From Torpedo marmorata (Eukaryota), in the NCBI GenBank assembly GCA_977017645.1, contig OZ360225.1, positions 30,008,001-30,072,000 of the forward strand: DNA of 64,000 bases. Direction: 5' to 3'. The position numbers and the translations under genes were made by a program. The notes beneath the pieces are model-generated. The model saw only the letters and a program-made list of their open reading frames with translations, did no database searches and was not told the origin of the DNA. This document shows positions 11,943-63,390 of this stretch, in pieces (within the stretch, counting starts at the first letter, position 1; every line of letters starts with the position of its first letter).

Positions 11943-11982
11943 GTTTAAAGAAACTAGAGAAGATGACATTTGGTTGGTAGAT
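11943..11982 (+). CDS. TMX3: TMX3 coding exon 3 (FKETREDDIWLVD)
   Basis: GCAG acceptor, GTAAGT donor, 40 nt; matches human FKENRNDDIWLVD. Confidence 0.93.
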
Positions 11983-16686: not shown

Positions 16687-16780
16687 ATCAAAATCCATCT
16701 TGGTAATTGAAGGAATCCCAGTTTGGTTTAAGGCATTCCTTTTGTAAAGCTAGTGTGTGTGTAACAAAAAACCAGCAACA

Positions 16781-28385: not shown

Positions 28386-28509
28386 TTCTATGCGCCTTGG
28401 TGTGGCCACTGCAAGAAACTGGAACCCATCTGGGATGAGGTAGCTTCTGAAATGCATTCCATAGGGTCCCCGGTGAAAGTTGGGAAGATGGATGCCACAG
28501 TTTATGCAG
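28386..28509 (+). CDS. TMX3: TMX3 coding exon 4 (thioredoxin active site [16 protein letters not shown]...KMDATVYA)
   Basis: TTTCAG acceptor, GTGAAC donor, 124 nt; near-identical to human [38 protein letters not shown]. Confidence 0.96.
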
Positions 28510-40500: not shown

Positions 40501-41304
40501 CTGAATTTCTCGTCTCATATATTCACAAAAGTCCTTTCTTTTCAATAAGAAGGAATCAAATCTCCAATTATATACAGTTTTTTCCTTCTCTGGAATTATA
40601 CATGTCATTAATAAAGGTGAATGATCTGAAATTAATCTTGCTTTATAAGATATCTGTGTTATTCTATCCTGAATTTGCGAAGATAATAAAAACAAATCTA
40701 TCCTAGAAAAAGAATTATGTCTAAATGAATAAAATGAATAATCTTTCTCTCTAGGTTTCAACTTTCTCCAAATATCCACCAAATTTAAATCCTCCATCAA
40801 ATTAATTATCTTTTTGACTATTTTTGGTCTAGCAGATGTTTTCGAAGTTTTATCCATAATTGGATTTAAATCTCCACCAATTAAAATATTCTCTTTAGCA
40901 TCTGATAGATGTAAAAAGGCATCTTGAATAAATTGTTCATCATCAGGATTTGACACATATAAATTCATAAGAGTCCAAAATTCTGAATAAATTTGACAAT
41001 ATATCAAAACATATCTTCCTGCCTTATCAATCACTGTCGATTGTATCTTAAAAGGTAACTTTTTATTTACTAAAATAGCTACTCCTCTAGCCTTAGAATT
41101 AAATGACGACGCTATAACATGTCCTACCCAGTCTCTTTTCAATTTTTGATGTTCAATATCTGTCAAGTGAGTTTCTTGTAAAAAAGCTATGTCTACTTTC
41201 AACTTTTTAATATATGCCAAAGTTCGTTTTCTTTTAATTGGATTATTAAGCCCATTTATATTAATACTTACTAGGTTTATACTTTTAGAATCTCCCATAA
41301 TCAA
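37518..41304 (-). CDS. L1 ORF2 (APE endonuclease, reverse transcriptase, C-terminal Cys-rich region), frameshifted near the C-terminus
   Basis: 1182-aa ORF: NINGL...LQETHL...GGD.N...SDH (APE); YRPISLLN, DAEKAFD, RQGCPLSP, LFADD (RT); CFRC...HCTWSC. Continues in ORF 37518-37814. Confidence 0.9.
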
Positions 41305-41486
41305 ATAATAACTGTTCCCTGTTAATCAAATCCACCAGCGTTTCCCTCTTTTTCTGTCGTAAATACATTTCCTCCTCAACTAGAATAAAGAATAGAAGTA
41401 AAAGAAAAGAAAACCCCCCTGTAAAAAACACAGGTCTTCTACTCCCAGTGCTACCCCCCTCCGTTGTTCGAGAAGCAGCTCTCGCT

Positions 41487-41820
41487 GCTAAGTCCAATGG
41501 TGGTCAGGCAACGTAAAGAATTTAATCCTGCAAAGGCTGTATTGTGGGAAAAAGGATATAAATTTTCGTTTAAGTATCCAGCAATTCTGAGGATTCAAGA
41601 TAATGGTGAGAAGTTTTTGTTATTCAAAGATCCTGATTTGGCTCTTTCTCACGCAAATGGTCTTCAACGTCGGCCAAGAAGTTTTCTGGATTTTGTTGAA
41701 CAACAAGATCGGAATAATCAAGCAAGTCGTGGAGAAATAGTGCCTGGTCCGTCAAGAGAAAATATTCAAATTCAAGCTGAAGAAGAATTGGAGGATTCAG
41801 TTATGCGAGGAGTTGATTGA
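41487..41820 (+). pseudogene. L1 ORF1 C-terminal domain, inverted relative to ORF2
   Basis: 'LSPMVVRQRKEFNPAKAVL..KGYKFSFKYPAILRI' is typical of the vertebrate L1 ORF1p C-terminus and lies inside the L1 TSDs. Confidence 0.8.
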
Positions 41821-44125
41821 AGTATATGTTGGACAAATATATATCTGTTGGAGGGAGGTGGTTTGTGGATACTTCTTCCGAAACAATCGTCAAAATTCTT
41901 CTTAAATGTTAAAATTGAGCCCACATTCACCACCTCAGCTGGCAGCTCGTTCCACACTCCCACCATTCTCTGTGTGAAGAAGTTCCCTTTCGTGTTCCCC
42001 CTAAACTTTTCCCCTTTCACCCTGAACCCATATCCTCTGGTTTGTATCTCACCTACCCTCAGTGGGAAAAAAAACCTACCTATTTTTACTCTGTCTATCC
42101 CCCTCATAATTTTAAATACCTTTATCAAATTGCCCCTCATTCTTCGACGCTCCAGGGAATAAAGTCCTAACCTGTTTAACCTTTCCCCGTAACTCAGTTC
42201 CTGAAGTCTGGGCAACATCCAAGTAAATCTTCTCTGCACTCTTTCAATCTTATTGATATCTTTCCTGTAGTTAGGTGACCAAAACTGCACACAATATTCC
42301 AAATTTGGCCTCACCAATGTCTTATACAACTTTACCATAACATCCCAACTCCTATACTCAATACTTTGATTTATGAAGGCCAATATGCCAAAAGCTCTCT
42401 TTACAACCCTATCCACCTGTGACGCCACTTTCAGGGAATTATGTATCTGTATTCCCAGATCCTTTTGTTCTACCGCACTCCTCAATCAGAGCCCTACCTT
42501 GATTTGGATGACAAATAACAGTGGACCCAGCATTGATCCTTGTGGAACACCACTGGTTACAGGCCATCTGTCTGAATAACAACCCTCCACTACCAACCTC
42601 TGGCTCCAATAGGCCATCTCACCCTGGATTCCATGCAATCAGCCTACAATGTGGGACCTTGCTAAAGTCCATGCAAATTATGTCCATTGCCCTACCCAAT
42701 CTTCTTGGTCACCTCCTCAAAAAACTTTATCAAATTCATGAGATGCGATCTCCCATGCATGTAGCCATACTGACTATCCCTCATCAGTCTTTGCCTTTCC
42801 AAATGCATGTAGGTCCTGTCCCTCAGAATCCCCAACAGTAACTTATCTACTGGACTGGTTACCTGGCTTGTTCTTACAACCTTTTTACAATACAGAACAT
42901 TAGCTACCCTCCAGTCTTCCTATACCTTGTGCTGATGCAAACATCTCTATAATGCACTTGCAATTTCTTCCCTAACTCTCCATAATGTCGTGGAATACAC
43001 GATCAGGCCCCATGGATTTATCTATCTTGTGTGTTTAAGAGACCTCCAGCACCTCCTCTTCTATAATGTGGACTCACTTCAAGACATCACTCTTCACTTG
43101 CCCAATTGTCCAAACATCCATATGTCTTCACAGTAAATACAGATTAGAAATACTCATTTAAAACCTCGCCTATCTCCTGTGGCTCCACATGTAGACCATC
43201 TTGTTGATCTTTAACGGTCCCTTTTAATATATTTGAAATGGATATGTGAAATGAGATTAAAGTGTGGAATAAACTCCCAGCAAGTGCTAATGCACGCTGA
43301 TTCATTCTTCTTTGGAAGAATAAGAAATACTGTTTTTAAAAATAGGTACGAGTGTTTAAATACTCAAGAGTGCAATTGAATTTGCTTGTTCAAACAGTGG
43401 AGATGACATTGTAGGGTATTCTGCAGTGCTTTTGTGACACCTGCTGATGGTCTTGCTTTGATATTCTGCAGAGTGAATTGAAAACAAGCAACTCTCAGTG
43501 GAGCTGGCATTAAATAAAAAGGGACTGTTTTTCATTAGGCAGAACATTTTAAGTTAGGCTGCCCAGTGGCACAGCTGGTAAGCTGTTGCTCCACAGCTCC
43601 AGCAAACCAGGTTTGTTCCTGACCTCGTGCAAACTTCACAATGTTCTCCCAGTAAATGCAGTTGATGTAGTGTACCTGGACTTTCAGAAAGCCTTTGATA
43701 AGGTCCCACAGTGGAGATTAGTGGGCAAAATGAGAGCACATGGTATTGGGGGTAGGGTACTGACATGGATAGAACATTGGTTGGCAGACAGGAAACAGAG
43801 TAGGGTTAAACAGGTCCCTTTCAGAATGGCAGGCAGTGTCTAGTGGGGTACCGTAAGGCTCGGTGCTGGGACCGCAGCTGTTTACAATATACACTAATGA
43901 TTTAGATTAGTGATTCCCAAAGTGGGCGGTGCCGCCCCCCTTGGGGCAGTGGAAAGATCCAAGGGGGCGGTGAGGAAAAAGGGGGCTGTCAGGGGTGGTG
44001 AGGAAAAAGGGGGCAGTCCGAACGTTTGTTTGTATTTTGGTTACGTGGTCTGGGATATTGGGCCTCAAAATTCCTGGCCGGGAAATGACAGGTGAATGAA
44101 TCCGCCGGGAGATCTGGCCACAATC

Positions 44126-45468
44126 CTACTGCAGTGGAGTGGACCATCGCCATACATTGGTCCACCCCTTCTGACACTGCAGCTCCACCACTGCTTCCTG
44201 CAGGGCATCGATGGATGCGTGCAGGGCCTCGGTGTGGCCTGGAGGAGGCGCCAACGGGGGATGGCCCAACCCGTGCCCTTTGCGGACGAATCCCATTCCA
44301 TCGCTCAACTTCCCTGCACAATGCTCCTTCCAGATTGCATACAGGGCGAAGGCGAATATCGCATTGATCCGGTCCTTAGCTAGCCCTACACTCTTTTCTA
44401 CCTTCCGGGCCCGAACACGCACGGCCCTCTCCAAGTACTCCAGCCCTTCCAGCAGTCTCCCTCGATATCTTACCAACCGCTGGACAGATTAAAGACAGCA
44501 CAATCCCCTTCAGATAGGGAAGGATGGTGGTGCCCAGGTGTCCCGCCACTGCGGCGGTAATCCAGAGCCCTCAGGGGACTCACGGCCGTGGGCGCCCTCA
44601 TAGTCCAGTAACTAGAGCCCAGTCACTAAGGGACCTAATCACATCCTCTACCGAACGCCACTCTGGCTCTGCCCGCGACTGTAAATCCCATTGCAGCAAG
44701 GAGGGGCCCGTCACCCGGACAGCAGCTTCTTCCCGGACCAACAGGGATGAGTTACCCTCCATGGCCTCAGACGGCATCCGCAGGCCGTTCTTCATGGCTT
44801 CCTTACTGGATAACCCACCCAGATACCTGCTTCCGATGGGGTACGCTCACGCCGGTACCAACCGCGTCCCAGATCTGGAGTAGCCACATGGCCACAGCTC
44901 AAACTACTGTACATTGACCAGCCTGCATGCGAGCTGTGTGCCTTTATTCTCTCTGGCGCAGGTTTCCCCATCAGGGAGCAACGCTGCAGCAGCGTTTACA
45001 CCTCAAATTTTAACTGGGTGATCTCGTGTTCCTTTCGTCGCAAGGCTTTGTGTCGGTGCCAAAGAAAGACTGTCAGCAGCCAAAAGATCCCTCTATGGCT
45101 CCCCTTACATCCCGTGAACTCCGATTATTTGAGAAGGGACACAAGATGGTGGCCAATCTCCTCCCCTTATAAGTCCACACTATCTGACCATTCCATCGGC
45201 TTGCGATGCTCCTCCAGCACGCTAGCCAGACTGCCGAACCCAGCAGTATCTTTGATCGACCACGATACTCTGACCCCTGTACACGTGGGGCCCTTCATTT
45301 TAGCCTTTTGCCAGAACATCGCTCCCACCCAATTGCCCGGTTGTTTTTCCTTGAACCATTCTCGTAGCGGCAATCTGTGGTAGGAAAAGAAATTCGTAGG
45401 GTTAAAATAGTGACAATCCTCCCTACGTGTCAGTACGAAACGGTGAACTTTATATACACACGACACCA
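44126..45468 (-). pseudogene. Decayed retroviral gag-like fragment (class III/ERV-L-like) inside the hAT element
   Basis: Stop-interrupted frames resembling ERV-L Gag blocks (see findings); possible PBS TGGTGTCGTG at 45459-45468. Similarity judged by eye. Confidence 0.5.
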
Positions 45469-45572
45469 ATACGTAACAGGAGACACACATTCACCCACAT
45501 GCAAACCAGTAATGTTCTGATACAAGTTTGCAAAACAATACCAATGTTAATTCGTGGGTTCATACAATCAGT

Positions 45573-46329
45573 AGGTCTTTTCACACCGCCGACGTCTTGG
45601 GAAGCCTGGACCTCCGGGTTCTTTCAGACCGCTGCCTAACTTACCAGGTGAAGTAGCAACCAGTCATTTTAAGGGCGTGCCGCCTCCAACGATTACGATG
45701 CGAGTGACGCATTACGCACTCACAAGAAATGTTTCAAAAAACAACGGGCCCGCTCAGGGCGGCGGCGGCTCAATTCGGGATCAATGGCCATCTTCGTTAC
45801 CCATAATCCCCCACACAGCTGGAACCGCTCTGCCAATTTGCCAGCACCAGGGAAACGCAGAGCGGTTCCAGCTGCGTGGGGAATTATGGGTAACGAAGAC
45901 GGCCATTGACCCTGCATTGAACCGCCGCTGTCCTGAGCGGGCCCGTTGTTTTTTTATTTCGGGAAGTTACAAGTTTTTCAATTTTAAAATACTTTTAATA
46001 TTGCGGCTTAGTTCCCTTTGGCATCGTTAAAGTAACATTTATATTGTTGTATCTCTTATTTCTATTGTTATGGGTTTTATGTGACGCAAGCACGCAGGCG
46101 CTGACGTCAGTAATATTACCAGGTAAGCCATTTGCTTTTTCAGACCGCTAGAAGACGGTTGCCGGGCTAACTCGTCCGGGCTCTGAGAGTACCCCTGACT
46201 AGGTCTCAGAGCCTGGTCGAGTTTGACCTGCCATGCAAGGTTGGGCCTTTTCAGACTGCACGTTTTCCAGGTAAGTTCCTGGGAAATCGGATGGTTTGCC
46301 CACATACACTCGGCAGTGTGAAAAGGCCT
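45573..46329. mobile_element. PIF/Harbinger-type MITE nested in hAT copy A
   Basis: TIRs AGGTCTTTTCACAC / GTGTGAAAAGGCCT, 3-bp TSD AGT; the empty site (CAATCAGTACC) is present in copy B at ~60996-61006. Confidence 0.82.
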
Positions 46330-47553
46330 AGTACCTACCACCCGTATCACGACAAGCAGGCATGGCACACCAATTAAAAAGGTGATGTGTATATATCTGC
46401 AAGTTACAAGAGCAAGACACAATAGTTGTTTTAAATTTGCAGTAGACCTAATACCAAGAAAGAAGTGTGTGTTCGGTTTATGTGTTTGTGTTTGGGGGGG
46501 GGGGGGGGAGGCGAAAGGGATGTGGCCTGGGAGCCAAGGGGGCGGCAGGCCGAAAAAGTTTGGGAACCACTGGACTAAAGGGTCCGTTTCCATACTGTAT
46601 GACTATGACTCTAATAGGTTGATGCATTTACTCCATTTGCCACTACCTGATTCACATTTACACAAAAGTTGGAGAAAAAGGGACCAGCTAATGCCCAAAA
46701 GAAAGGCACTTTAGGCAAATAATTAAACAGAAAGAAGCTGGTCATATGTATCATTGTATATATATATTTTTTAAATCCTGCTTCCTCCCAGATGATTGAC
46801 ACAAAAATCTTTGGTTTCTTGATTGTGTCCTTTTCGGGGGTCATTGGATATGGGCCAATCTTAACTCCCCTTCCAAAATAAAAACCTCAGAAATTAAGTT
46901 TTTTATGTATATCATTTGTGAAACAGGAAATTTACATCAGGATGTGTGCAAAGAAATGTGAACTTCCGCATTAAGTGTTGCAGTATTTGTCAGGAGGCCT
47001 TGGAACTTAATCGGGAGGTCAACAAGGGCCATTGAAATAGCACATGTTGCGGCTGTAAGCTTGCATAAAATAACCAGCAAGCAGTTGGTCAGACGATCTG
47101 GGCCAAAACTTGAAACCTGAGATGAAGGATTGAGAAAAGAATGCACAATACCAGGGGAAGCAAGCACATTTCCAGTCTTTTTTCAAACATCTCTTTAACA
47201 ACTGAGAAGTTAATCTAATGCAAGCAACCAGGAGATAAAAACTAGCTGACCAATTATAATAATTTTTCCACATGGTTGAGATATTTAAATTACTCATTTA
47301 GCTTCAAGTTTGAAAAGGAGACAAATCTAAGAATTTATATCACCACAAACACTTGTGTTTATCAAGATGGCCCAGGAAAGGGAGAGAGGAAATACGAGCT
47401 TTCCATCCCTCAAGTCAATTTAACATTTTCGTTTGTTACAAAACAGCAGAGCTTTTGAAAATCTTGGCAGATGCATCTTAATTCTTTCCTTCACCTCAGC
47501 TCTGATGACACATGCTACAGAGGGAAACATTTACAAATATAGCAACTGAAAAG

Positions 47554-47810
47554 TGGGCGGCACGGTTAGCATAGCGGTTAGCGCAACGCTGTTACAGCGC
47601 CAGTGATCAGGACCGGGATCTGAATCCCGTGCTATCTGTAAGGAGTTTGTACGTTCTCCCTGTGTCTCTGTGGGTTTCCTCCAGGGGCTCTGGTTTCCTC
47701 CTACTATTTGAAATGTACTGGGTTAATTGAGTGTAATTGGGCAGCACAGGCTCGTGGGCTGAAATAGCCTGTTACCGTGCTGTATGTCTAAATTTAAAAA
47801 AAATTAAATT
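47554..47810 (+). mobile_element. V-SINE (HE1-like)
   Basis: Same family as 14892-15150. Confidence 0.85.
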
Positions 47811-48239
47811 TAAAAGTTATAAAATATAAAAGTGCAGACCAATTAATTTTATATTATAGGGGATTTGGGAATATAATAAATTCCATAAGTAAAATCACTA
47901 GATTTGTTTGATTTGCATTTACCAAAAGATGCCCAGATTTGGTTACTCTAAGAAACCCAATCTCTCACCAATATTTGATTTCATTTTCATCTCAAAGATA
48001 ACTTTTAGGTTTTAAGAGAAGCATGTTTATTTCACAATGTAAAAGTCACTGAACACTTTTGTACTCCACATTATCTTACAGATTAAAACACATACTTCAC
48101 AGGAATTTAAAACAAATGTATTATTGACTAAAAGGGTCAACAAAGTGAAATGCAGTTACTAAAAAATTGCAATTCTCGGATACAATTCAAATTCTGAAAA
48201 TATTATAAATTATCAGTCATTTTTAGTGGAAAGAAGCTT

Positions 48240-50098
48240 GCGATGCTGCCTTCAGGACAGGGGATAGGATGGCACTAAGATCAGCCAGGGCTGAACTCTC
48301 CCATGCAATCCGGAAGGCAAAGCGGGGGTACGCACAGAAGATCCACAGACAGCCGTGTGACACCGGCGACACGAGGCGCATGTGGCAAGGGATCAAGACT
48401 ATAACAGACCACAAGTCAACCTTGAGAGTTAAGGACAATGACACCTCCCTTCTGGACAGACTGAACATCTTCTATGCACGGTTTGATGACAAGAACAGGA
48501 TGACGCCAAAGAAAGCTCCGTGTCCCCCTGATGAACGGGCCCCCTACATAGCCACATCCGAGGTGAGGAGAACCCTATCCAAGGTGAACCCACACAAGGC
48601 GGCAGGACCAGACAACGAACCTGGTCGGGTACTGAAGGTCAGCGCACACCAATTGACGGAGGTCTTCACAGACATTTTCAACACTTCACCGCAGCAGTCC
48701 ATCGTTTCCCGCAGGGTTCAAGACAGCCACCGTCATCCCAGTACCCAAGAGGGCGACAATAACAGGCCTCAATGACGACAGCCCTGTGGCACTGACCTCC
48801 ACCATTATGAAATGATTCGAGTGTCTGGTGATGGAATGCATCAAAGCACACCTCACAGAAACACTGGACCCATTTCAATTCGCCTACAGAAGAAACCGTT
48901 CCACAGACAATGCTATAGCCTTGTCCCTTCACTCCCTCCTGACCCACCAGTAGAATGCCGCCTCATACACCAGGCTGCTGTTTATTGACTTCAGCTCAGC
49001 ATTTAATACAATCATTCCCCAGAGGCTGGTGAAGAAGCTGTCCTCGCTGGGACTCAACACTCCTCTCTGTAACTAGATTCTGGACTTCCTAACGGAAAGG
49101 CCACAGATTGTTCGGGTTGGTAGCAGAACGTCAAGCACCGTCACGCTGAGCACTGGCGCACCTCAGGGCTGTGTGCTCAGCCCGCTCCTGTTCATACAAC
49201 TGACCCACAACTGCATCGCCAGATCCAGCTCCAACAGTGTCATCAAATTTGCAGTTGACACAACAGTAGTTGGCCTCATCAGCAACAACGATGAGTCGCT
49301 CTACAGAGAAGAGGTGGAAAATCTCGTGAAATGGTGCGAGAGTAACAACCTGAGTCTCGACGTGAACAAGACAAAGGAGATGATCGTGGACTTCAGGAGA
49401 ACCAGGAACGACCACCCTCCACTACACATCAACAACTGTATTAGAGAGAGTGGAGAGCACCAATTTCCTTGGAGTTCATTTAACTAGTGACTTATCGTGG
49501 ACACTCAACATCTCCTCACTTGTCAGGAAGGCGCAACAACGACTGCACTTCTTGATAAGACTGAAGCGGGCAAGGCTACTAGCCACCATTATGTCAACCT
49601 TTTATAGGAGCTCTATCGAGAGCGTCCTGGCCAGCTACGTCACAGTGTGGTACGGTTGCTGCAGAGAAATGGTCGGAGGTCAATCCACAGGACCATAAGA
49701 GTGGCAGAGAGGATCACTGGAGTCTCCCTCCCCCCCCATTGACGTGATCTACCATGATCGTTGTCTGAAGAGGGCGCACAAAATCATTGAGAACCCCTTC
49801 CACCCTGCACACAGCATCTTTCAGCTGCTACCATCGGGAAAGAGGAGTATCAGGGCCAGCACCACGAGGATGAGGAACAGCTTCTTCCTACAGGCAGTGA
49901 GAATGCTGAACGACCATCTGAGACTCTCATATTCATGAAAGCAATATTTATTCATGTATTTGTATGGATGAAATACTTGTCCTGCATATGAATTGTTTGT
50001 CTGTATGTGTGTTATGTCTGGTTGTGTGTCTGCACCGAGGACCAGAGATCATTGTTTTGTCGGGTTGTACTTGTACAATCAGATGACAATAAACTTGA
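48240..50098 (+). mobile_element. Rex1/Babar-type LINE, 5'-truncated and degenerate
   Basis: 'KAAGPD', '[11 protein letters not shown]', '[12 protein letters not shown]' and '[11 protein letters not shown]' motifs with an AATAAACTTGAA tail. Confidence 0.85.
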
Positions 50099-50838
50099 AA
50101 GAGGTAGTTTTCCACAAATGTGGGATTCCTCTGTCCCCATTCCTTCTCATTTTCTTCTCTTTCCCCTCCCTGCCCTATCTACCTGACCGTCACCCACACC
50201 TTCCTTCCTCCATCATCCCACACCCTTCCCTTCCTTCCTCCTATGAGCTATAACCCTCTGCCTCCTCCTCCAAACATCTCCAAGATTTTTATTTTTTTCC
50301 CCATTTCTTCTCCCTCCTCCTTCCTCCCCACCCTTTTTATTCAGGCATCAGCCCATTTCTTGCTATTCCTGATGAAGGGTTTCAGCCCAAAATTTCAACT
50401 ATATTTTGCCTTCCATGGATGGATTTCCAACATCTTCCATCTCTCTCTCGTTTTCCTTGGATTTTAATTCCTTATATTCCAAAGAACCAATATGCATGAA
50501 TTCCAGATCAACAAAATTGAATTTTGCTTCCAGAACCCATGCAGAAACTTGACAAAAATTCCAAAATATCAAAACGTGCTTCAAAGATGAAAGTTATCAT
50601 TCAATGAGTCACAGAATAGAAACAAGCCATTTGGTCCACTGAGTCTTAACTGACCATCAAGCACCCATTTACAGTATGCCTACACTGACCCATTTTACCC
50701 TCCCCAGATTCTACCCTTCACCTACACATTAGGGGGCATCTACAGTGCCCAATTAACATAATAACATGCACGCCTTTGAGATGTGGGAAGAAACCAGTGA
50801 ACTTGGAGAAAACCCATGCATTTACAGGGAGAACATTG

Positions 50839-53800
50839 TGTTATGGACCATGAACTGACCATTTGAACTGCGGACGATCAGCAGGAAGGATGAAGTCTTT
50901 TGGAGTACACACTGGGACCTGGAACTGAAAGAGTTAACTTGCCCAGGACTTCTTATACTTACAGAGAGAGACACCAGAGGGAGACAAACTGTGGAAAAAA
51001 GATACTTGGTTGCACTTTTGAAAAGGCAGGTGAAGACCTCTGCTAAAAAGGCCTTGAAGTTCAGTTGTGGAGGACTGAATCAGTGGCAGGTTGGAGTTGC
51101 AAAGGCGGGAGAACCCAGCAAAATCCAGGCTTGTGCATCCCAGAGGAAAAGGCTGGGAGAAGAGCACAGAGCCTCCTGAAACAGCAAAATCCAGCCTTGT
51201 GCATCCCAGGGGAAAATGCTGGGAGAATAATACAGGGCCTAGATAATTCAGCAAAATCCTGAGTTGAAGGCAACTTTTGTGAAGAACAAGCGTGAGATCA
51301 GCGAGACAGGCTGTGAGATCCAAGTATAAGCCTCAATCTAAAACTGATTTGGAGTCGCAATCCTTGTGAATGTACCAGAAGGGAAAGTCATCAGAGAAGA
51401 AAAGCAGGCCAAGCATTCGTAAGCATAAACAGTCATTGTCTCTCTCTCTCCAACGTTCATTAAGAATCAGAATCAGAATTTATTGTCATGAACAAGTCAT
51501 GAAATTCAGTGTTTTGCGGCAGCATCATAGTGCAATTAACATTCATATTAACCATCTTACGACATTACTATAAAAATTATAAATAATAGTGCACAAAAAG
51601 TAAGGCAGTGTCTTTAGTTCATTGATTATTCAGGAATCTGATGGCAGCGGGGAAGAAGCTGTCCTTGTGCCATTGAGTGCTCGTCTTTAGGCTCCTGTAC
51701 CTTTTTCCCGATTGAAGCAGAGTGAAGAGGGCATGGCCTGGGTGGTGGGGGTCTTTGAGGATAGAAGCTGCTTTTATAAGACACCGCCTCATGTAGATGT
51801 CCTCGATGGAGTGAAGTTTGGTGCCTGTGATGTCACAGGCCGAGTTAACAACCCTCTGGAGTTTACTCTTGTCCTGAGAGTTGGCGCCTCCATACCAGGC
51901 AGTGATGCAACCAGCCAGAATGCTCTCCAGGGTACACCTGTAGAAGTTTACGAGAGTCTTTGGTGACATACCGAATCTCCGCAGACACCTTACAAAGTAT
52001 AGCCGCTGACGAGCCTTCTTTGTGATTGCATCAACGTGGATGCTCCAGGACAGATCCTCGGAGATGTTGACACCCAGGAATTTGAAGTTCTTGACCCTCT
52101 CCACTACTGAGCCCTCGATGAGGACTGGGTCATGTTCCCCTGACTTCCTCCTGAAGTCCACAATCATCTCCTTGGTTTTGCTGACGTTGAACTCAAGATT
52201 GTTGTCATTACACCATTCAACGAGCTGATCTATCTCCCTCCTGTACGCTTCCTCATTGCCGTTTGTGATTCTGCCGACAACTGTGGTGTCATCGGCAAAC
52301 TTGTAGATGGCATTGGAATTGTGCCTGGCCACACAGTCATGGTGTATAACGAGTAGAGCAGTGGACTAAGCACGCATCCTTGGGTTGCGCCTCTGTTGAT
52401 AATCAGTGAGGAGGAGACGTTGTTTCCAATTCGTACCGACTGTGGTCTTCCGATGAGAAAGTCAAGGATCCAGTTGCAGAGTGGGTACAGAGGCCTAGAG
52501 TTTGTAGCTTCTTGACCAGCACTGAGGGAATAATGGTATTGAAGGCCGAGCTGTAGTCGATGAAGAGCAGCCGTATGTATGAATTGCTGTTTTCGAGGTG
52601 ATCCAGAGCTGAGTGGAGAGCCAGTGATATTGCATCTGCTGTGGAGCGATTGCGACGATAGGCGAATTGCAGAAGTCCTTCTTGCCAGCACACATAGAGA
52701 GTGAATCTTTGTGGACTGCATTTTTGAGACTGACTTGTTTTTATTACTGACCTGGGGGTTTTGGGGAAAGTTTTCCATTTTTACATGAGGGCCGGGCACA
52801 GACTGTAATGGTCTGGGCTTCACACACACAGACACACACACAGACACACACACAGACACACACACAGACACACACACACACACACGTGTTTATAGACGAA
52901 GAATAGTGTTTATAGACGTTTATAGTGGGGTTAATTGTTGTGAAATTATATGTTTAATTGTCTTTAATAAATATAAATTTCAATTTTATCCCTTTTGCAT
53001 TGCGTCTTCTGTAGTTGCTGGTTTGAAATTTTAACAAAATTGGGGGTTCGTCCTTGGATTTGAATCAAGATCCATCTTGGTAATTGAAGGAATCCCAGGC
53101 TGGTTTAAGACATTCCTTTTGTAAAGCTATTTAAAAGCTAGTGTGCGTGTAACAAAAAACCAGCAACAATGGATGTAGAAAATTTTTTGGAATCACCTGA
53201 ACCTGATATTTAAAAAAGGCTAAAAAGGAACAGTTAGTGGCTATAGCAACAGAGTTTGGCATTGCTTCTGTAAAACCATCAATGAAAAAGGCAGAGATTG
53301 GGGAAAAATTGCCAAATACTATATAAAAGGGAAAAAGTTTGAGGAGAGCGTGTTAGAGCAGTTTCCCAAGGGTCAACCTTCTGAAAACATACAGTTGGAC
53401 GAAAGAAATTGGAATTGGAATTGGAACAAAAGAGATTAGACTTGGAGGCAGCCAGGGAACAAAAGAGATTAGATATGGAATTGGAACAAAAGAGATTAGA
53501 CTTAGAGAGAGAGGAGAAAATTAGGCAATATGAGCTGGAAAAGATTAAGTTGGAAAATGAGAGGAGACAAGAAGAGCACCAAGATCAAATTCGTCATCCT
53601 GCTGAGGGGTTTTTGGCTAGTAGAGATGTTAGGTTGGTTCTTCCATTTGAGGAGGCAGAAATAGATAAGTACTTCCAGCATTTTGAGAAGGTGGCTGTGA
53701 AATTAAAATGGCCACAAGACCAATGGTCTCTTATGTTACAAAGTGTAATAAAAGGAAAAGCTCAGCAAGCTTATTCTACTCTTACCACGGCGCAAGCTGC

Positions 53801-56800
53801 TGATTATAAAACGGTGAAAAAGGCTATACTCCAGGCTTATGAGTTAGTTCCAGAGTCTTATAGACAGAAGTTTAGAAATTTAAAAAGATCAGCAACCCAA
53901 TCTTACACAGAGTTTGCCTATGAAAAGGTTGTGTGTTTTGACTGGTGGTGCACATCCAAGGCGGTAAACAATGATTACAATCAATTGAGAAAATTGATAA
54001 TAATTGAGGAGATAAAAAGGTGTGTTCCTGAGGATATTAAGGCATACTTAGATGAAAAGGAGGTGAAAACTTGGCAAAATTCAGCTAAGTTAGCAGATGA
54101 ATATGCTTTAACCCATAAGCCTAAGTGGATGTCAGGAAGAATTTTCCAAAAGGTCACTGTGGATAATCCCAAGCAAGTGGAAAGTAAATTTGGAAGTGGT
54201 GTTAAGGAAAGGGATGATGGAAAGAGGAAAAGGGAAAACCCTTCGGGTCGCATTTGCCACTACTGTAGGAAGGCTGGTCATATGCTAGAAAGCTGTCCAG
54301 TGTTGAAAAAGAAGAGAGAAAAGGATGCAACACCTAATGCTTGTTTTCAGAGTGAGAAGAGGCATAACACTCAGGAAGGAGATAAAGCTACTGGCAAAGT
54401 TAGGGATGTATTTAAACCTTTTGTGACTGATGGTTTTGTTTCAGTTAAGGCAGGAGCAAAGCAAGTTCCAGTGAAAATCTTGCGAGATACTGGAGCTGCT
54501 CAGTCACTTATGTTAGATTGTGTCTTGGAATTTTGTGAAGCTACTGACACCGGTGAAATGAAGAATTGGGGGTGATGTTGAGTCCATTCCTTTTTGCACA
54601 AAATAGTGTTGGACTGGGCCTTGGTGGAAGGACCTGTTATAATAGGAGTGAGATCAGAGTTGCTAGTGGAAGGAGTCTCACTTTTGTTAGGCAATGACTT
54701 GGCTTAGGGTAAAGTAGTTCCTCCAGTGCGAATGACCACTAAGCCAGTCATTGATAAGTCAGAGAAAGACTCTGATATTTATCCGGCATGTGCCATAACC
54801 AGGGCCATGTCTAAGAAAAATGTCACTGTAGAGAAGGCAGTGGAAACTAAATTGGTGAAAGAAAAAGTCAGTGATATTCAAGAACACCTGGAAAAGGTTG
54901 AGCAATCTCCTGTGTTACACCCATCCACTGATAAGACACCAAAAGGCACAGATTTGTCACTATCCCGACAGGAGCTAATAGCAAGGCAAAAGGACGATCC
55001 TGATCTTGCTGAGGTGAGGGATAAGGTTCTCTCTGAAGAGGAGATTAAAAAGGTGCCAGTGGGTTATTATGAAAAAGATGGGGTGTTGATGAGTTAGTGG
55101 AGACCATGTGATGTTCCTGCCAATGCAGAATGGGCAATAGTGCAGCAGGTTGTGATCCCTAAAGTATATCGGGATGCAATAATAACTTTGGCTCATAGCA
55201 CACCCTTAGGTGGTCACCTTGGGGGTGAAGAGAACTATACGGAAGATAATGAAACAATTTTATTGGCCCAGTTTGAGAAGGGAGATTGTAAGCTTTTGCC
55301 GGGCCTGTCACACTTGTCAGGTGGTGGGTAAACCTAATCAGGGTCCCCCGGTGGCACCCTTCCAACCTATCCCTGCTTTCAGTGAGCCTTTCTCGAGAGT
55401 GATTGTGGACTGTGTTGGCCCATTGCCCTAAACCAAAGCGGGGAATGAATATTTGTTAACAATTATGTGTGCAGCCACCAGATTTCCAGAGGCCATTCCT
55501 CTGAGAAACATTAAAGCAAAAACAATTGTAAAGGCTATGGTAAAGTTTTTCACCTTGGTAGGTTTGCCAAGGGAAATTTCATCAGATCAGGGCAGTAATT
55601 TCATGTCAGGCGTTTTCCAACAAGTGGTTGATGGACTGGGAGTTAAACAGGTTGTATCCTCTGTGTACCATCCAGAAAGTCAAGGGGCCTTGGAGAGGTT
55701 CCATTCGACTTTGAAAAACATGATTAGAACCTATTGTTGTGAGAAGGAAAAGGATTGGGATGAGGGGGGTTCATTTGTTGTTATTTGCAGCGAGGGAGTC
55801 TGTCCAAGAATCACTTGGTTTTAGTCCATTCGAGTTAGTTTTCGGACATGAGGTGAGAGGTCCTTTAAGGTTATTAAAAGAACAGTGGATTAATAGTGAT
55901 GTTAGATTATGTTTCAAAATTTAAGGATCGGTTGCATGGGGCTTGTGAGATGGCAAAGGAGACTTTAAAGGCCACTCAACAGAGAATGAAGGTTTAGTAT
56001 GATCGAAAGGCCAAGATGAGAACTTTTAAACCTGGTGAGAACGTATTAGTTCTGTTTGCCATCCATTCAAATTCTCTTGGGGCTAGATTTTCAGGACCCT
56101 ATAGAGTTAAAGTCAAAAATTAATGATGTCAGCTATGTCATAGAAACACATAATCGCAGATGAGACACACAGGTCTGTCATGTGAATATGATTAAGCCAT
56201 ATTTTGAACAGGTGCCGCAGAAAGAGACTGAACATTTACCACAGGTGCTGGTTATTGATCGGTGTAAGGAGGAGACAGATAAAACCAGTTTCAGAGAGGG
56301 TCATGGGACTGTTAATTCTCTGGGTTATGTAGTAGGACAGGGGCAGTTGGCGCCAGCAGAGGCAAAGGTTGTGACTATTTCCGAGTTCCCTGTTCCAACT
56401 GGTAAGAAAACTCTGAGCAGGTTCCTGGGAATGATTGGCTACTACCGCAAGTTCTGTAAATAAACTTTGCAGATCTTGCGCTCCCTCTCACAAATTTGCT
56501 TAGAAAGAGAGAAAAATTTGTATGGACGACAGGTTGTCAGGGAGCATTTGTCGAATTGAAAGCCATGTTATGCCACCAACCTGTGCTTAAGTCACCTAAT
56601 TTAGAACAGTCGTTTTCTTTAGCCGTGGATGCCAGCGATGAAGCTGTGGATGCGGTGCTGTTGCAGAGGAAGAACGAAGAGGACATTCACCATCCTACTT
56701 CTCGAAGAAGTTCAATGATCATCAAAGGAATTATTCAACCATAGAAAAAGAGTTGTTGGCTCTTGTTTTGGCTTTGCAACACTTTGATGTTTATATCTGT

Positions 56801-58060
56801 ACAGTTCAAAAACCACTCATAGTGTATACTGACCATAATCCATTGGTTTTTCTTTGTAAAATTAAAAATAAGAATTGACCGTTGTTGAAATGGAGTTTAA
56901 TTTTGCAGGAATATGATTTAGTAATAACACATATAAAAGGGAAAGATAATATAATTGCTGATTGTCTTTCTAGATGCTGAACTTTATAAATGAAAATAGT
57001 TCATATTTTGTGTTTATGGATGAACATTGTGGGTTTTGTTTATATTGTAACACCTCAATTTCCAAAGTTTTTTTCTTGCAAACCAACATTTTCTTTGTGG
57101 GTGGGAGGTATTATGGACCATGACTGACCATTTGGACTGCAGACGGTCAGCAGGAAGGATGAAGTATTTTGGAGTCCACACTGGGACCTGGTACTGAAAG
57201 AGTTAACTTTCCCAGGACTTCTTGTACCTACAGAGAGAGACACCAGGGGGAGACAAACTGTGGAAAAAAGATACTTGGTTGCACTTTTGAAAAGGCAGGT
57301 GAAGACCTCTGCTAAAAAGGCCTTGAAGTTCAGTTGTGGAGGACTGAATCAGTTGCAGTTTGGAGTTGCAAAGGCGGGAGAACCCAGCAAAATCCAGGCT
57401 TGTGCATCCCAGAGGAAAAGGCTGGAGAAGAGCACAGAGCCTCCTGAATCTGCAAAATCCAGGCTTGTGCATCCCAAGGGAAAAGGCTGGGAGAAATACA
57501 AGGCCTTGGTGATTCAGCAAAATCCTGAGTTGAAGGCAACTTTTGTGAAGAACAGGCGAGAGATCAGCGAGACAGGCTGTGAGATCCAAGTACACGCCTC
57601 AATCCAAAACGGATTTGGAGTCGCAATCCTTGTGAATGTACCAGAAGGGAAAGTCATCAGAGAAGAAAAGCAGGCCAAGCATTCGTAAGCATAAACAGTC
57701 ATTGTCTCTTTCTCCAACGTTCATTAAGAAGTCCTTCTTGCCAGCACACAGAGCTGAATTTGGACCCTGAACATAGAGAGTGAATTTTTGTGGACTGTAT
57801 TTTTGGGACTGAGTTGTTTTTATGACTGACCTGGGGGTTTTGGGGAAGGTTTTCCATTTTTACATGAGGGTTTGGCAGAGACTGTAATGGTCTGGGCTTT
57901 ACACACACACACACACTTTTTAGATAAGAATAGTGTTTATAGACGTTTATAGTTGGGTTAATTGTGAAATTATATGTTTAATTGTCTTTAATAAATATAA
58001 ATTTCAATTTTACCCCTTTTGCGTTGCGTCTTCTGTCGTTGCTGGTTTGAATTTGTAACA
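50839..58060 (+). mobile_element. Gmr1-type Gypsy LTR retrotransposon, copy 2 (same RT-core deletion)
   Basis: LTRs 50839-53036 (containing a LINE insert) and 57109-58060; TSD ATTG (50835-50838, 58061-58064); PBS at 53041; disrupted gag-PR-IN-RH at ~53169-56980. Confidence 0.92.
51467..52670 (-). mobile_element. Rex1/Babar LINE inserted into the 5' LTR of Gypsy copy 2
   Basis: RT motifs [15 protein letters not shown] and KFADD; AGAA repeated on both sides; absent from the 3' LTR. Confidence 0.9.
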
Positions 58061-60717
58061 ATTGTGAAGTTTGCATGAGGTAAGGATCAAACCTGGTTTG
58101 CTGGAGCTGTGGAGCAACAGCTTACCAGCTGTGCCACTGGGCAGCCTAATTTAAAATGTTCTGCCAGCTCCACTGAGAGTTGCTTGTTTTCAATTCACTC
58201 TGCAGAATATCAAAGCAAGACGATCAGCAGGTGTCACAAAAGGTGTCACTGCAGAATACCCTACAATGTCATCTCCACTGTTTGAACAAGCAAATTCAAT
58301 TGCACTCTTGAGTATTTAAACAATTGTTTCTATTTTTAAAAACAGTATTTCTTATTCTTCCAAAGAAGAATGAATCAGCGTGCATTAGCACTTGCTGGGA
58401 GTTTATTCCACACTTTAATCTCATTTCACATATCCATTTCAAATATATTAAAAGGGACCGTTAAAGATCAACAAGGTGGTCTACATGTGGAGCCACAGGA
58501 GATGGGCGAGGTTTTAAATGAGTATTTCTAATCTGTATTTACTGTGAAGACAATTTTACGTAAATTTACATCAGAGGTCAACGTATTAGACGAGTAAATA
58601 TTTCAAATCACAGTTTTCTTTGGTTCTACTTCCTACTCAATTGCATGGGTTGTGATTTATTCAGACAGCATTCTATACAGTAGTATATTCCATTCTTATG
58701 TTCCAAAGATTTGTGGAAACAATTTGAAAGTTTCATGCTGGAAGGAATTAGCATCATAAAAAAAAATAAGAAATTCATAACTCAGTGCTAAACAAAAGAG
58801 CTTTCTTCAGGATTATGATCATAATCCAGATTAATGTGAAGATAGTTAAAGTGGCAAATGTTCTGTTGAGCTTCACAGTGAGAGGACATGAGTACAGGAC
58901 CAGGGGTGCCCTATTGCAATTATTCAGGGTCTCGGCAAGATCACTCCTTTTGCACTGTGTGCAGATTTCGCCTGCTTGCGAGGAAGATTGTTTATGCTAC
59001 GGAGGGGTTGCAATGAAGGTTTACTAACTGATTCCTGGTAGCAGAACTGATAAGAAGAGTGATTGTGACGAATAGGTTTGTTTTTAACAAGAATTTAGAA
59101 GAATGTGAATGGCCCTCTGAAACATTTAAAATCCTGAGGAATTTGGATAGACCAGATGGAGGAAGAATGTTCCTGGTGGCGAGGTTAGGGTGAGAATAGA
59201 ATCAACCATTAAGACAACAAGGGCACAGGGTAAACCATTTTGAATAAAGGGAGGAGAAATATCGACCCAAAGAGTGGTGAACCTGTGGAATGTTCTATTA
59301 CAGAAGGTAATTGATACCAAATCATTCAATATTTTCAGATTTAAATATAATTTTTATGACTATAAAGATTCAAGATATGGGGAGAAAGCAGGAACAGGAC
59401 ATTGAATTTGGATGAACATCCATAACCATATTGAATAACAGTTTTAATCTACAATTTGAGAGGGAGAAGGGAAAATCGGAAGTGTCATTATTGCAGTTGA
59501 ACAAAGGGGACTATGGAGCCATGAGGGAGGAGCTGGCCAAAGTTGACTGGAAAGATACTCTAGCAGAGATAACAGTGGAACAACAATGACAGGTATTTCT
59601 GGGAATAATACAGAAGGTGCAGGATCAGTTCATTCCAAAGAGGAAGAAAGATTCTAAGGGGAGTAAGGGGCGACCGTGGCTGACAAGGGAAGTCAAGGAC
59701 AGTATAAAAATAAAAGAGAAGTTTAACACAGCAAAGATGAGCGGGAAGCCAGAGGGTTGGGAAACTTTTAAAGAGCAACAGAAAATAACTAAAAAGGCAA
59801 TACGGGGAGAAAAGATAAGGTACGAAGGTAGGCTAGCCAAGAATAGAAAGGAGGATAGTAAAAGCATCTTTAGGTATGTGAAGAGGAATAAATTAGTTAA
59901 GATCAAAGTTGGGCCCTTGAAGACAGAAACGGGTGAAATTATTATGGGGAACAAGGAAATGACAGAAGAGTTGAACAGGTACTTTGGATCTGTCTTCACT
60001 AGGGAAGACACAAACAACCTCCCAAATGTAATAGTGGACAGAGGACCTAGGGTAACGGAGGAACTGAAGGAAATTCACATTAGGCAGAAAATGGTGTTGG
60101 GGAGACTAATGAGATTGAAGGCTGATAAATCCCAAGGGCCTGATGGTCTGCATCCCAGGGTACTTAAGGAGGTGACTCTAGAAATCATAGATACATTGGT
60201 AATCATTTTCCAATGTTCTATAGATTCAGGATCAGTTCCTGCGGATTGGACGGTAGCTAATGTTATCCCACTTTTTAAGAAAGTTAGCCTGACATCAATG
60301 GTGGGGAAGATGCTGGAGTCAATTATAAAAGATGAAATAGAGGCACATTTGGATATCAGTAACAGGATCGGTCCGAGTCAGCATGGATTTACGAAGGGGA
60401 AATCATGCTTGACTAATCTTCTGAAATTTTTTGAGGATGTGTCTATGAAAATGGACAAGGGAGATCCAGTGGATGTAGTGTACCTGGACTTTCAGAAAGC
60501 CTTTGATAAGGTCCCACATAGGAGATTAGTGGGCAAAATTAGAGCACATGGTATTGGGGGTAGGGTACTGACATGGATAGAAAATTGGTTGGCAGACAGG
60601 AAACAAAGAGTAGGGATTAACGGGTCTCTTTCAGAATGGCAGGCAGTGACTAGTGGGGTAACGCAAGGTTCGGTGCTGAGAGCGCAGTTATTTACAATAT
60701 ACATTAATGATTTAGAT
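58061..60717 (-). repeat. Inverted segmental duplicate of 43123-43641 and 33901-36112
   Basis: Reverse-complement match that includes non-TE sequence; ORF pairs such as 35636-35878(-) / 58785-59027(+) are nearly identical. Confidence 0.92.
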
Positions 60718-60776
60718 CATTAGATTTGGATTAGTTCCCATGTCTCCCAGGCCACATCCCTTGCGCCCCCCCCTCC

Positions 60777-60868
<92 letters not shown>

Positions 60869-62615
60869 ACTTGGTATTAGGTCTGTTGCAAACTTAAAAC
60901 AACAACTATTGTGTCTTTCCCTTGTAACTTGAAGATAGATACACATCACCTTTTTAATTGGTGTGCCGTGCCTGCTTGTCGCTATACAGGTGGTAGGTAC
61001 TGATTGTAAGAACCCATGAATTAACATCGGTATTGTTTTGAAAACTTGTATCAGAACATTACTGGTTTGCATGCGGGTGAATGTGTGTCTCCTGTTATGT
61101 ATTGGTGTCGTGTGTATATAAAGTTCACCGTTTAGTTCTGACTCGTGGCGAGGATTGTCACTATTTGAACCCTTCGAACTTCTTTTCCTACCACAGATTG
61201 GCACTACGAGAATGGTTCAAGGAAAAACAACCAGGCAATTGGGTGGGAGCAGTGTTCTGGCAAAAGGCTAAAATAAAGGGCCCCACGTGTACAGGGGACA
61301 GAGTATCGTGGTCGATCAAAGATACTGCTGGGTTCGGCAGTCTGGCCAGCGTGCTGGAGGAGCATCGCAAGCCGATGGAATGGTCAGATAGTGTAGACTT
61401 GTAAGGGGAGGAGATTGGCCACCATCTTGTGTCCCTCCTCAAATAATCGGAGTTCACGGGATGTAAGGGGAGCCACAGAGGGATCTTTTGGCTGCTGACA
61501 GTCTTCCTGCGGCACCGACACAAAGCCTTGCGACGAAAGGAACACAAGATCACCCAGTTAAAATTTGAGGTGTAAACGCTGCTGCAGCGTTGCTCCCTGA
61601 TGGGGAAACCTGCCAGAGAGAATAAAGGCACACAGCTCGCATGCAGGCTGGTCAATGTACGGTAGTTTGAGCTGTGGCCATGTGGCTGCTCCAGATCTGG
61701 GACGCGGTTGGTACCAGCGTGAGCGTACCCCATCGGAAGCAGGTATCTGGTTGGGTTATCCAGTCAGGAAGCCATGAAGAACGGCCTGCAGGTGCCGTCT
61801 GAGGCCATGGAGGGTAACACATCCCTGTTGGTCCGGGAAACTGCTGCTGTCCAGGTGACGTGCCCCTCCTTGCTGCAATGGGATTTACAGTCGCGGGCAG
61901 AGCCAGAGTGGCGTTCGGTAGAGGATGTGATTAGGGCCCTTAGTGACTGGGCTCTAGTTACTGGACTATATGAGGGCGCCCACGGCCGTGAGTCCCCTGA
62001 GGTCTCCGGATTACCGCCGCAGTGGCGGGACACCTGGTTACCACCGTCCTTCCCTATCTGAAGGGGATTGTGCTGTCTTTAATCTGTCCAGCGGTTGGTA
62101 AGATAGCGAGGGAGACTGCTAGAAGGGCTGGAGTACTTGGAGAGGGCCGTGCGTGTTCGGGCCCGGAAGGTAGAAAAGAGTGTAGGGCTAACTAAGGACC
62201 GGATCAACGCGATATTCACCTTCGCCCTGTATGCAATCTGGAAGGAGCATTGTGCAGGGAAGTTGAGCGATGGAATGGGATCCGTCCGCAAAGGGCACGG
62301 GTTGGGCCATCTCTCGTCGGCGCCTCCTCCAGGCCACACCAAGGCCCTGCAAGCATCCATCGATGCCCTGCAAGAAGTAGTGGTGGAGCTGCAGTGTCAG
62401 AAGGGGTGGACCAGTTTATGGCGACGGTCCACTCCGCTGCAGTATGATTGTAGCCAGATCTCCCGGCGGATTCGTTCACCTATCATTTCCCGGCCGGGAA
62501 TTTCGAGGCCCAATATCCCAGACCACGTCACCAAGATACAAAGAAACGTTCGGACCGCCCCCTTTTTCCTCACTGCCCCCTTGGATCTTTCCACCGCCCA
62601 CTTTGTGAATCACTA
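60718..62615 (-). mobile_element. Non-autonomous hAT element, copy B (inverted; right TIR replaced by filler)
   Basis: Reverse-complement match to 43908-45572 plus 46330-~46535; left TIR ends at 62615, followed by CTTTAGTC. Confidence 0.82.
60783..60867. repeat. (CA)n microsatellite, about 42 units
   Basis: Pure CA run; the matching position in copy A (~46465-46492) is a short interrupted GT tract. Confidence 0.95.
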
Positions 62616-63390
62616 CTTTAGTCCAACTTGTCCACACTGACCAAAATATCCCACCCATACTAGTCCCTTGTGTCTCTAAACTTATCCTATCCATGTATCC
62701 ATAGAATTTTCTTAAATATTGTAGTAGTACCTGGAACAACCACCTCATCCGGCAGCCTGTTCCATACACTTACCACCTGTGTATTTTAAGCTACCCCTCA
62801 TGTTCCTGCTGAATCTCTCTCTCCATTCCCCCACCTTAAACCCATGTCATCTCATTACCTATTTCCCCAACCAAGGGTAAAAGACTCTGCGTTCACCTGA
62901 TTTTATCCTCTCATCATTTTGTATTCGTCTGAGTTCACCTTTCAGCCTCCTGCTTTACTCCAAGGAATAAAGGCCGAGCCTACTCAACCTGACCTTGTAG
63001 GCCTCTGAGTCATGGGCAACATCCCCGTAATTCTTCTCTGCACCCTCTCCAGCTTGACAACATCTTTCCTGCAACAGTGACCAAAACTGAAGAGGAAACT
63101 CCAAATGGGACCTCACCAACATTTATACAACTGCCACATGACCTTCCAACTTTGACACCCAATACTCTGACTGACAAAGGCCATTGTGCTGAAAGCCTTT
63201 TTGAGCACCCTATCTACTTGTGACTCCACTTTCGATGTTCTATACATCTGTGCTCCAAGATCCTTCTGCTCTACACCAACTCCCCAGATCCATACCATTC
63301 ACTGTGTAGGTCCTATGCGTGTTGGCCTGACCCATGTTGGACCTCCCAAAATGCAGCACCTCACATTATTCTGTAGTCAATTCCATTTCC
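62616..63390 (-). mobile_element. Degenerate CR1 3' fragment whose terminal tail is displaced to 46573-46612
   Basis: ORF 63113-63298(-) 'EQKDLG...QVDRVLKKAF'; the tail ...GGACAAGTTG-GACTAAAG continues as GACTAAAG-GGTCCGTTTCCATACTGTATGACT at 46573. Confidence 0.75.

Follow-up and report, generated by a model that had tools for sequence, protein, structure and literature searches.

A split target-site duplication marks an old, hAT-anchored inversion-duplication in Torpedo marmorata

Analysis of 64,000 nucleotides from Torpedo marmorata (contig OZ360225.1, positions 30,008,001 to 30,072,000; this whole stretch is called the window below) revealed a real and old inversion-duplication anchored on two inverted copies, A and B, of one non-autonomous hAT-type transposon, apparently within intron 4 of the gene TMX3. 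Scars of this type are already known from maize and flies, and aberrant transposition from maize, rice and flies; a search of openly licensed PubMed Central and bioRxiv texts found no natural vertebrate case at base resolution. The pre-insertion target, one clean new junction, a split target-site duplication (TSD) and three internal clocks are all preserved within 30 kb, and the locus could serve to test whether vertebrate hAT miniature inverted-repeat transposable elements (MITEs) rearranged chromosomes directly.

One insertion site split in two

The first insertion site of the element, D, is represented by two separated flanks, each adjoining one of the copies:

46573..46580, + strand: one half of the split TSD, GACTAAAG, adjoining the right end of A and followed by the 3' tail of a CR1 element
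62616..62623, + strand: the other half, CTTTAGTC, adjoining the left end of B and followed by the body of the same CR1
43908..46572, + strand: copy A, non-autonomous and hAT-type, with both 16-nt terminal repeats intact (13/16 identical)
60741..62615, - strand: copy B, which keeps the left terminal repeat (1 mismatch, and a 20-nt subterminal deletion) and has lost the right one

GACTAAAG is the exact reverse complement of CTTTAGTC, as the original prediction, made from the letters alone, had stated. The 8-mer occurs twice in the window on both strands together, and a Markov model puts the chance of the match at 1.8e-5, or at 2.2e-4 given its central TA. Brought together, the flanks of D align gap-free over the join with a second CR1 tail at 36266-36445 (62.5% over 184 columns, E = 7e-11), so that they do rebuild the single, collinear CR1 tail that had been claimed. 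The exact split TSD and the gap-free CR1 tail thus indicate that D was one site that was split and half turned round, and we regard this as secure.

The two copies share, in opposite orientation, a core of 94.8% identity (43992-45573 in A, 60998-62579 in B), which bears out their description as inverted copies of one element; that neither has a matching TSD was likewise correct. Copy A measures 1909 bp once a later insert is subtracted. A strict pattern for the right terminal repeat matches once in the window, at the right end of A, and B lacks about 36 nt of its right end.

Self-BLAST of the window provided the map of the surrounding block. We write the ancestral order as up-T-S1-S2-D-down, where T is a second target site, and use L and R for the ends of the element. 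The features at T are the following:

32940..35190, - strand: CR1 copy "O", 5'-truncated, ends approximate, with an RVT_1 domain and CR1-type homologues, uninterrupted across T
33901..33908, + strand: T, ATCTAAAT, intact, TA-centred and in frame in the CR1
43659..43907, + strand: A-flank, a third copy of the T-adjacent CR1 piece, ending in ATTTAGAT
58549..60717, - strand: B-flank, which duplicates 33901-36113 in inverted orientation and stops exactly at T
60718..60743, no strand assigned: repair scar at the inner end of B, composed of a flank repeat, a terminal-repeat stub and a join to right-end subterminal sequence

The left terminal repeat of A begins exactly after ATTTAGAT (43900-43907), which makes this an exact element end on a new 8-bp target, and the CR1 at 33901-33908 is uninterrupted and in frame, in agreement with the original prediction. 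The further statement that the other ends of both copies abut the same site holds cleanly for A but not for B, where a scar intervenes and the right end is lost. This scar consists of an imperfect 14-nt flank repeat (60718-60731) and a decayed 9-nt terminal-repeat stub (60732-60740), followed by right-end sequence from about 36 nt in. There is thus one clean new junction, L|T of A, and one scar, and both lie on the S1 side of T.

In normal cut-and-paste transposition each element end is transferred to a different strand, one on either side of the target. Since this chemistry bars both L and R from the same side in one reaction, the two same-side junctions at T are not halves of one TSD. The junction of B is probably derived rather than independent, and its inner end is not evidence for a second clean strand transfer. 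Two independent junctions at one site would be expected by chance about 1 time in 48 to 1 time in 1075, an estimate that involves a stricter target motif.

The remainder of the rearranged block comprises:

33901..43660, + strand: S1, original-orientation arm
43659..43660, no strand assigned: J, junction from S1 to inverted 34147-33901, with 2-nt microhomology and not a transposon end
46573..50838, - strand: S2, single-copy inverted segment
58061..58552, - strand: inverted duplicate of 43123-43642, differing at 11/487 sites
58549..58553, no strand assigned: deletion junction of the inverted arm, joining 36113 to 43123 with 3-nt microhomology
43639..43642, - strand: empty site of the Gypsy insertion, a single ATTG, in the + arm of S1
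50839..58060, + strand: Gypsy-type long terminal repeat (LTR) retrotransposon with an ATTG TSD, present in the inverted arm only and carrying a long interspersed nuclear element (LINE) in its 5' LTR
37224..41903, - strand: young L1-like LINE with a 15-bp TSD and an open 1189-aa second reading frame (ORF2; endonuclease/reverse transcriptase), within the part of S1 that the inverted arm lacks

Along the window the order is up, T, S1, J, the inverted first 250 bp of S1, T, A, D, inverted S2, Gypsy, inverted S1, T, scar, B, D, down. Segment 33901-34147 is present three times, the rest of the S1 arm (34147-36113 and 43123-43660) twice and S2 once; for the sequence left of 33901, no second copy at 85% identity or more was found in the window. 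Inverted S1 lacks 36114-43122, a gap of which 4.7 kb correspond to the L1-like LINE of the + arm, an insertion that looks recent. Duplication and loss therefore accompany the inversion, with S1 duplicated and the T flank triplicated; the original prediction had recognized the inversion with its split TSD but missed the duplication of S1 and the triplicate 33901-34147. Its ancestral order (33-43.6 kb, then the reverse complement of 46573-50838, then 62624 onward) is borne out by the continuity of the inverted arm, which runs on from S2 into S1 across the Gypsy and is matched by the + arm for 22 nt past the Gypsy site, up to J. Read backwards, the inserted block is T-S1-S2-D-element-T-250 bp, slightly more than a single unit of a circle or tandem array in which L|T forms the closing junction. 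A short interspersed nuclear element may be present at J; Rfam returned 0 matches in 32000-64000.

The element and the age of its copies

The element appears to work like a Buster-group hAT MITE, judged from its terminal repeats and TA-centred 8-bp TSD. The same 8-mer stands at the right end of A and the left end of B and rebuilds one site, and the terminal inverted repeats of A (16 nt, 13/16 identical) are in the Buster range. Terminal inverted repeats of hAT elements measure 10-25 bp and those of Buster elements 14-16 (PMC3942097, PMC12637253), and the target consensus of TcBuster is nnnTAnnn (PMC3499496). Both sites, D and T, fit this consensus (2/2); 3927 of the approximately 64000 8-mers of the window have a central TA. 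The copies thus resemble Buster-group elements in their 16-nt terminal repeats, 8-bp TSD and central TA (PMC3499496, PMC12637253, PMC3942097), and differ from them in having no transposase and in consisting of about 370 bp of ends around 1.5 kb of unassigned cargo. No transposase family was recognized among 12 internal open reading frames (ORFs) or 3 more ORFs, and the partner element is absent from the window. Besides this, one and the same GC-rich subterminal motif is missing from B at both ends, through the 20-nt deletion at 62595 (43929-43948 in A) and the loss at 60741 (46536-46560 in A); if transposase binds this motif, the loss immobilised B at either end.

Two further features lie within the copies:

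44020..45565 (coordinates of A), - strand: cargo common to A and B, unassigned by Pfam and described by its anatomy only
45573..46329, no strand assigned: insertion in A only, with terminal inverted repeats, a 3-bp TSD (AGT) and an empty site in B; Harbinger-like by anatomy

The start of the cargo (61005-61215; 45365-45565 of A, - strand) is formed by a TG...CA stretch of 190 bp that includes a TATA-like box; next to it comes a motif starting with TGG. This anatomy suggests a captured short LTR with a primer-binding site and a gag-like fragment. The cargo gave no credible Pfam match in 12 ORFs, Atlas scores below 0.9 and 0 matches among 276 candidates, and tblastx found no convincing match to it within the window. 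From three cargo matches we compared one, P0241, whose identity to the cargo frame is 93% for A and 91% for B. It has one private residue besides its start, and it shows that the cargo is present outside this locus. Relative to P0241, A has 5 private residues and B 7, with 1 common to both, indicating that the two copies diverged from each other soon after they had left the source element. The insertion in A (757 bp) is later than A itself; it carries internal repeats of its terminal motif as well as a 219-bp palindromic MITE at 45736-45954.

The divergence between copies falls into two classes. The near-T flanks of O and B (37/609 sites, 6.1%), the element cores of A and B (78/1580, 4.9%) and the LTR pair of the Gypsy at 50839-58060 (49/914, 5.4%) form one age class (p=0.56). 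The distal arms (38/2039, 1.9%) form a separate class (p<1e-6 versus the older one), with 27/1552 sites (1.7%) differing beyond 34543 between the two long S1 copies. Exclusion of CpG sites left the order unchanged (element core 3.6%, LTRs 5.1%, distal arms 1.1% and 1.8%). The A-flank differs from the other two flanks at 18/247 and 18/249 sites, and O differs from B at 12/247.

The near-T differences are spread evenly over the codon positions (13, 12, 12) and include derived changes on both copies, indicating neutral decay; selection on differing CR1 sources is ruled out by the same observations. An old Gypsy age caused by conversion of one LTR was not supported either, as both LTRs carry derived changes (24 and 17); internally, this Gypsy diverges from the younger Gypsy copy of the window by 4.5-5.2% at second codon positions. 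The Gypsy is present in just one arm, so its LTR pair sets a minimum age for the duplication. The rearrangement is therefore old, with steps close together in time. To account for the younger distal arms, either conversion must have acted on the inverted arms at a later time or the arms must be allelic. Between 33901-36113 and 58549-60717 divergence drops from 6.1% to 1.7% at 34543, inside the CR1 (0/5000 permutations), possibly an arm-to-arm conversion boundary. Independent CR1 insertions were rejected as the source of the 2.2-kb match, which extends about 900 bp past the CR1 into non-CR1 sequence.

Origin of the rearrangement

Several known systems share parts of this architecture. Hybrid element insertion and sister-chromatid transposition (P element, Ac/Ds; PMC2775673, PMC3744419) likewise place element ends at the breakpoints on a new 8-bp target, combine inversion with duplication and deletion, and yield element copies that are as old as the flanks duplicated with them. 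In contrast to such events, the locus has one clean new junction and no reciprocal, its target is intact upstream and both junctions lie on the same side; the two halves of the new TSD on opposite target sides, a feature of alternative transposition, are absent. It also arose naturally in a vertebrate germline and is not an allele induced in a plant or fly. In maize composite insertions and bz1-m4-D6856, as here, hAT ends flank re-copied DNA with an internal microhomology junction (here J, 2 nt), the last repeat is incomplete and an element is truncated, and rolling-circle copying with an incomplete repeat and truncated element was proposed for bz1-m4-D6856 (PMC4270019). The maize composites, however, contain direct repeats within an enclosing 8-bp TSD (PMC4270019), whereas the copied block described here runs in the opposite orientation, takes the place of part of the original and is not enclosed by a TSD.

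In the Galileo inversions of Drosophila buzzatii, two inverted DNA transposon copies also bound the inversion and a TSD pair is split (PMC2775673); there, both TSD pairs are exchanged, copies are chimeric and the source describes no gain or loss, while here only the D pair is exchanged, with duplication and loss. Human triplications of the duplication-inverted triplication-duplication type (DUP-TRP/INV-DUP) resemble the locus in their two repair junctions, one possibly at an inverted repeat and one with 2-nt microhomology, and in an inverted extra flank copy (PMC11293582). They differ in using kilobase repeat or Alu homology and in copy numbers of 2-3-2 (PMC11293582), compared with 16-40 nt of transposon end and 3-2-1 here, where a transposase-made junction is moreover required first. 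Three hAT-flanked duplications are reported in the maize reference sequence (PMC3744419), animal DNA transposons capture flanks by repair (PMC8277862), and induced transposon mobilisation rearranges mouse chromosomes (PMC1584263).

Our best model is a single hybrid-end transposition that formed a circular junction, which was then copied in, inverted, by repair; we give it a probability of about one half. In its first step, which the sequence shows, a Buster-type non-autonomous hAT element inserted into D, in the CR1 tail, with an 8-bp TSD. Soon after, according to this model, transposase would have joined its L end to T, about 15 kb upstream, giving the junction seen at A; by our reconstruction the reaction was aberrant and drew its ends from two sister chromatids. 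The L-donating copy would have kept its R end on D and S2, closing a circle T-S1-S2-D-element, and the other chromatid would have been left broken at the element, with an intact T in the same cell. The broken chromatid may then have been repaired by copying slightly more than one turn of the circle, so that the copied tract would run from a 12-nt L stub through T, S1, S2, D, the element and T to 250 bp more. This copy would have entered backwards, joined to the trimmed R end via the likeness of the terminal repeats and at its other end to the resected left flank at J through 2-nt microhomology. The expected outcome is an intact T, a clean L|T, a scarred same-side junction, a split TSD, three T flanks and loss of the original S2, with the missing reciprocal junction carried off by the sister product. 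The Gypsy, LINE and Harbinger-like insertions and the deletion came later, and conversion between the inverted arms may have followed.

This copying model gives every junction and the equal age of all copies, and a single copied L-to-T transfer is the simplest reading of the pair of same-side junctions at T. The original prediction had invoked transposase-driven alternative transposition, probably in more than one step. Of this, the insertion at D, an inversion breakpoint in the element and a transposase-type junction at T stand, but an alternative over an ordinary route is not established. More than one transposase step is not required either, given a single new clean junction and three flanks and two elements of about the same age; nor does a hAT transposase have to be invoked for the later changes, namely the deletion and the Gypsy, Harbinger-like and L1-like insertions. 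A more specific version, to which we attach only a tentative and rather low probability, holds that a circle copied for more than one turn, made by a single element circularising 15 kb of its own flank and with terminal repeats as template-switch homology, is a vertebrate germline fossil of hybrid-end hAT transposition with rolling-circle re-replication. Were it true, one could search MITE-rich vertebrate genomes for junction pairs on the same side of a target, as a signature by which aberrant transposition is told apart from ectopic recombination.

A number of observations weigh against the copying model. The window holds no reciprocal up-T-R junction, and T is intact at 33901-33908; the younger class of the distal arms demands an extra conversion step; and a derived Pro-to-Thr change, not expected from a single event, is common to O and B and absent from the A-flank, at a position conserved in 40/41 aligned reference stretches. 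When the scar was compared with 4256 tiles of the window, the best score (26) went to a chance site and the L|T junction came next (25), a 7-nt part of the scar fitting the R repeat equally well. A changepoint test for chimerism on A and B was not significant (316/3000 permutations) but leaned towards a more divergent L end (23/268 versus 55/1312). Finally, the same circle and the same L|T result if a second insertion of the ordinary kind took place at T and direct copies then recombined, and since P0241 carries the cargo elsewhere, the shared cargo is no proof of one insertion. As to the scar, a 12-nt L stub needs 3 changes and an R end 4, in a fit with free parameters and no switch penalty, so that an L-to-R switch, the inverted-repeat junction feature of DUP-TRP/INV-DUP, is favoured at 60718-60743 by one change only. 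A score of 25 was reached in 5/20000 shuffles, with much of it supplied by the flank repeat. The scar thus fits a damaged stub of A's L|T junction slightly better, and we lean towards this reading.

The most serious competitor, a minority possibility with real weight, involves a transposase acting only normally. Two ordinary insertions in direct orientation, at D and T (a local hop or a second family member), would have been followed by unequal recombination involving a chromosome that had no insertion at T, giving a tandem duplication or circle, and later by replication repair with template switches, one of them between terminal repeats, giving the inverted structure. This route yields the same L|T junction and intact T, and its layout is like that of the human inverted triplications, with one inverted-repeat and one microhomology junction (PMC11293582); ectopic recombination is, in addition, the established cause of the Galileo inversions (PMC2775673). 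The somewhat more divergent L end favours it, as does P0241, which lies near the A/B midpoint and puts the cargo elsewhere. Yet it needs at least three events and predicts that the A-flank and B-flank are closest, when they differ at 18/249 sites versus 12/247 for O and B; the three amino-acid changes private to O in the T flank are all derived in O, and the changepoint test gave no significant sign of chimerism. Outcomes of hybrid insertion and ectopic recombination are described as differing only in chimeric copies (PMC2775673, Delprat 2009), and aberrant transposition, unlike simple ectopic recombination, gives duplications and deletions beside the inversion (PMC2775673). The early split of A and B fits either route. 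A simple two-copy inversion with exchanged TSDs was rejected, the outer flank of A being the S1 side of T and not the upstream side.

The assembly could also mislead. If 33-43.66 kb came from an uninverted allele and had been joined at J by the assembler, the duplication of S1 would be allelic. A misjoin of this kind could explain only J and the distal-arm match, and neither the split TSD nor the L|T junction would be affected. The distal arms differ by 1.9% (9/852 non-CpG sites outside CR1), which may be in the allelic range, and at 11/487 sites the distal arm lies below the LTR pair of the Gypsy carried by one arm (49/914, p=0.005). Divergence peaks beside the breakpoint, as expected between arrangements, and the 1.4-kb palindrome described below could itself be a read artefact. 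Such a misjoin is nevertheless unlikely: the 2-nt overlap at J is too short for one, the two arms are set apart by a Gypsy insertion, a deletion of several kb and indels of 14-33 nt, and the A-flank, 7% away from both other flanks, is no read duplicate. More generally, differences of 2-7% between the copies, indels and TSD-flanked insertions with empty sites indicate that the copies are not duplicated reads. Least probable, and in our view improbable outright, is that the A-flank is an independent 5'-truncated CR1 with its own hAT at the equivalent site, and that a CR1-CR1 exchange brought the long S1 copy to T. The 5' ends of CR1 elements often show microhomology, the stricter target motif occurs at only 8 sites of the 2.2-kb CR1, and the A-flank has 13 private changes versus 6 and 6 and keeps the conserved Pro. 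These private changes, however, include a stop codon and fall on first, second and third codon positions 8, 1 and 4 times, the even distribution of the O/B differences (13, 12, 12) is that of neutral duplicates, such a CR1 would lack its 3' half, and more events are needed than in the copying model or with two ordinary insertions.

TMX3 and other elements of the window

The first four exons of TMX3 lie upstream of the rearrangement:

1733..1766, + strand: exon 1, coding part, 34 nt, with a GT donor; ATG, donor and phase agree
1915..1969, + strand: exon 2, 55 nt, tblastn match to ray TMX3 (E 3e-9), AG/GT sites
11943..11982, + strand: exon 3, 40 nt, AG/GT sites, phase consistent
28386..28509, + strand: exon 4, 124 nt, CGHC thioredoxin site, Pfam Thioredoxin (E 8.6e-12)

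All are on the + strand with AG/GT sites and consistent phases, in keeping with a thioredoxin-family gene. The protein match of exon 1 is weak alone (9/13) and is backed by its ATG, donor site and phase. Exon 4 shares 95% identity with proteins named TMX3-like from Mobula birostris and Hemitrygon akajei, 93% with those of Rhinoraja and Pristiophorus and 85-88% with those of other sharks, in line with a ray as host; a PDB search returned other disulfide isomerases only. Intron 4 starts at 28510, and the rearrangement begins 5.4 kb 3' of exon 4. Exon 5 was not found on either strand of the 64-kb window (best ungapped score 26 of 72 possible). Exons 1-4 thus agree with the predicted location in TMX3, but the placement of the block in intron 4 is inferred, assuming that exon 5 lies beyond the window. 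The rearrangement moved no exon and has no evident effect on TMX3, for which it would matter little.

Intron 2 of TMX3 contains a near-perfect 1.4-kb palindrome without a spacer (2480-3891; 5 differences in 707 columns), hosted by a GIY-YIG-bearing, Penelope-like element; either a fold-back insertion or a read artefact could account for it. Directly after exon 3 lies a Pogo/Tigger-like element (12146-13839) with a 380-aa open frame (BrkDBD, HTH_Tnp_Tc5, DDE_1) and subterminal tandem repeats of 32 and 54 bp. The retrotransposons at 15741-21673 and 50839-58060 belong to one SCAN-domain Gypsy family and lie in the same gene, their LTR pairs differing by 1.3% and 5.4%, respectively. Two LINE copies that bear a reverse transcriptase (24041-24971 and 51460-52388) are 96% identical, and the second of them splits the 5' LTR of the older Gypsy.

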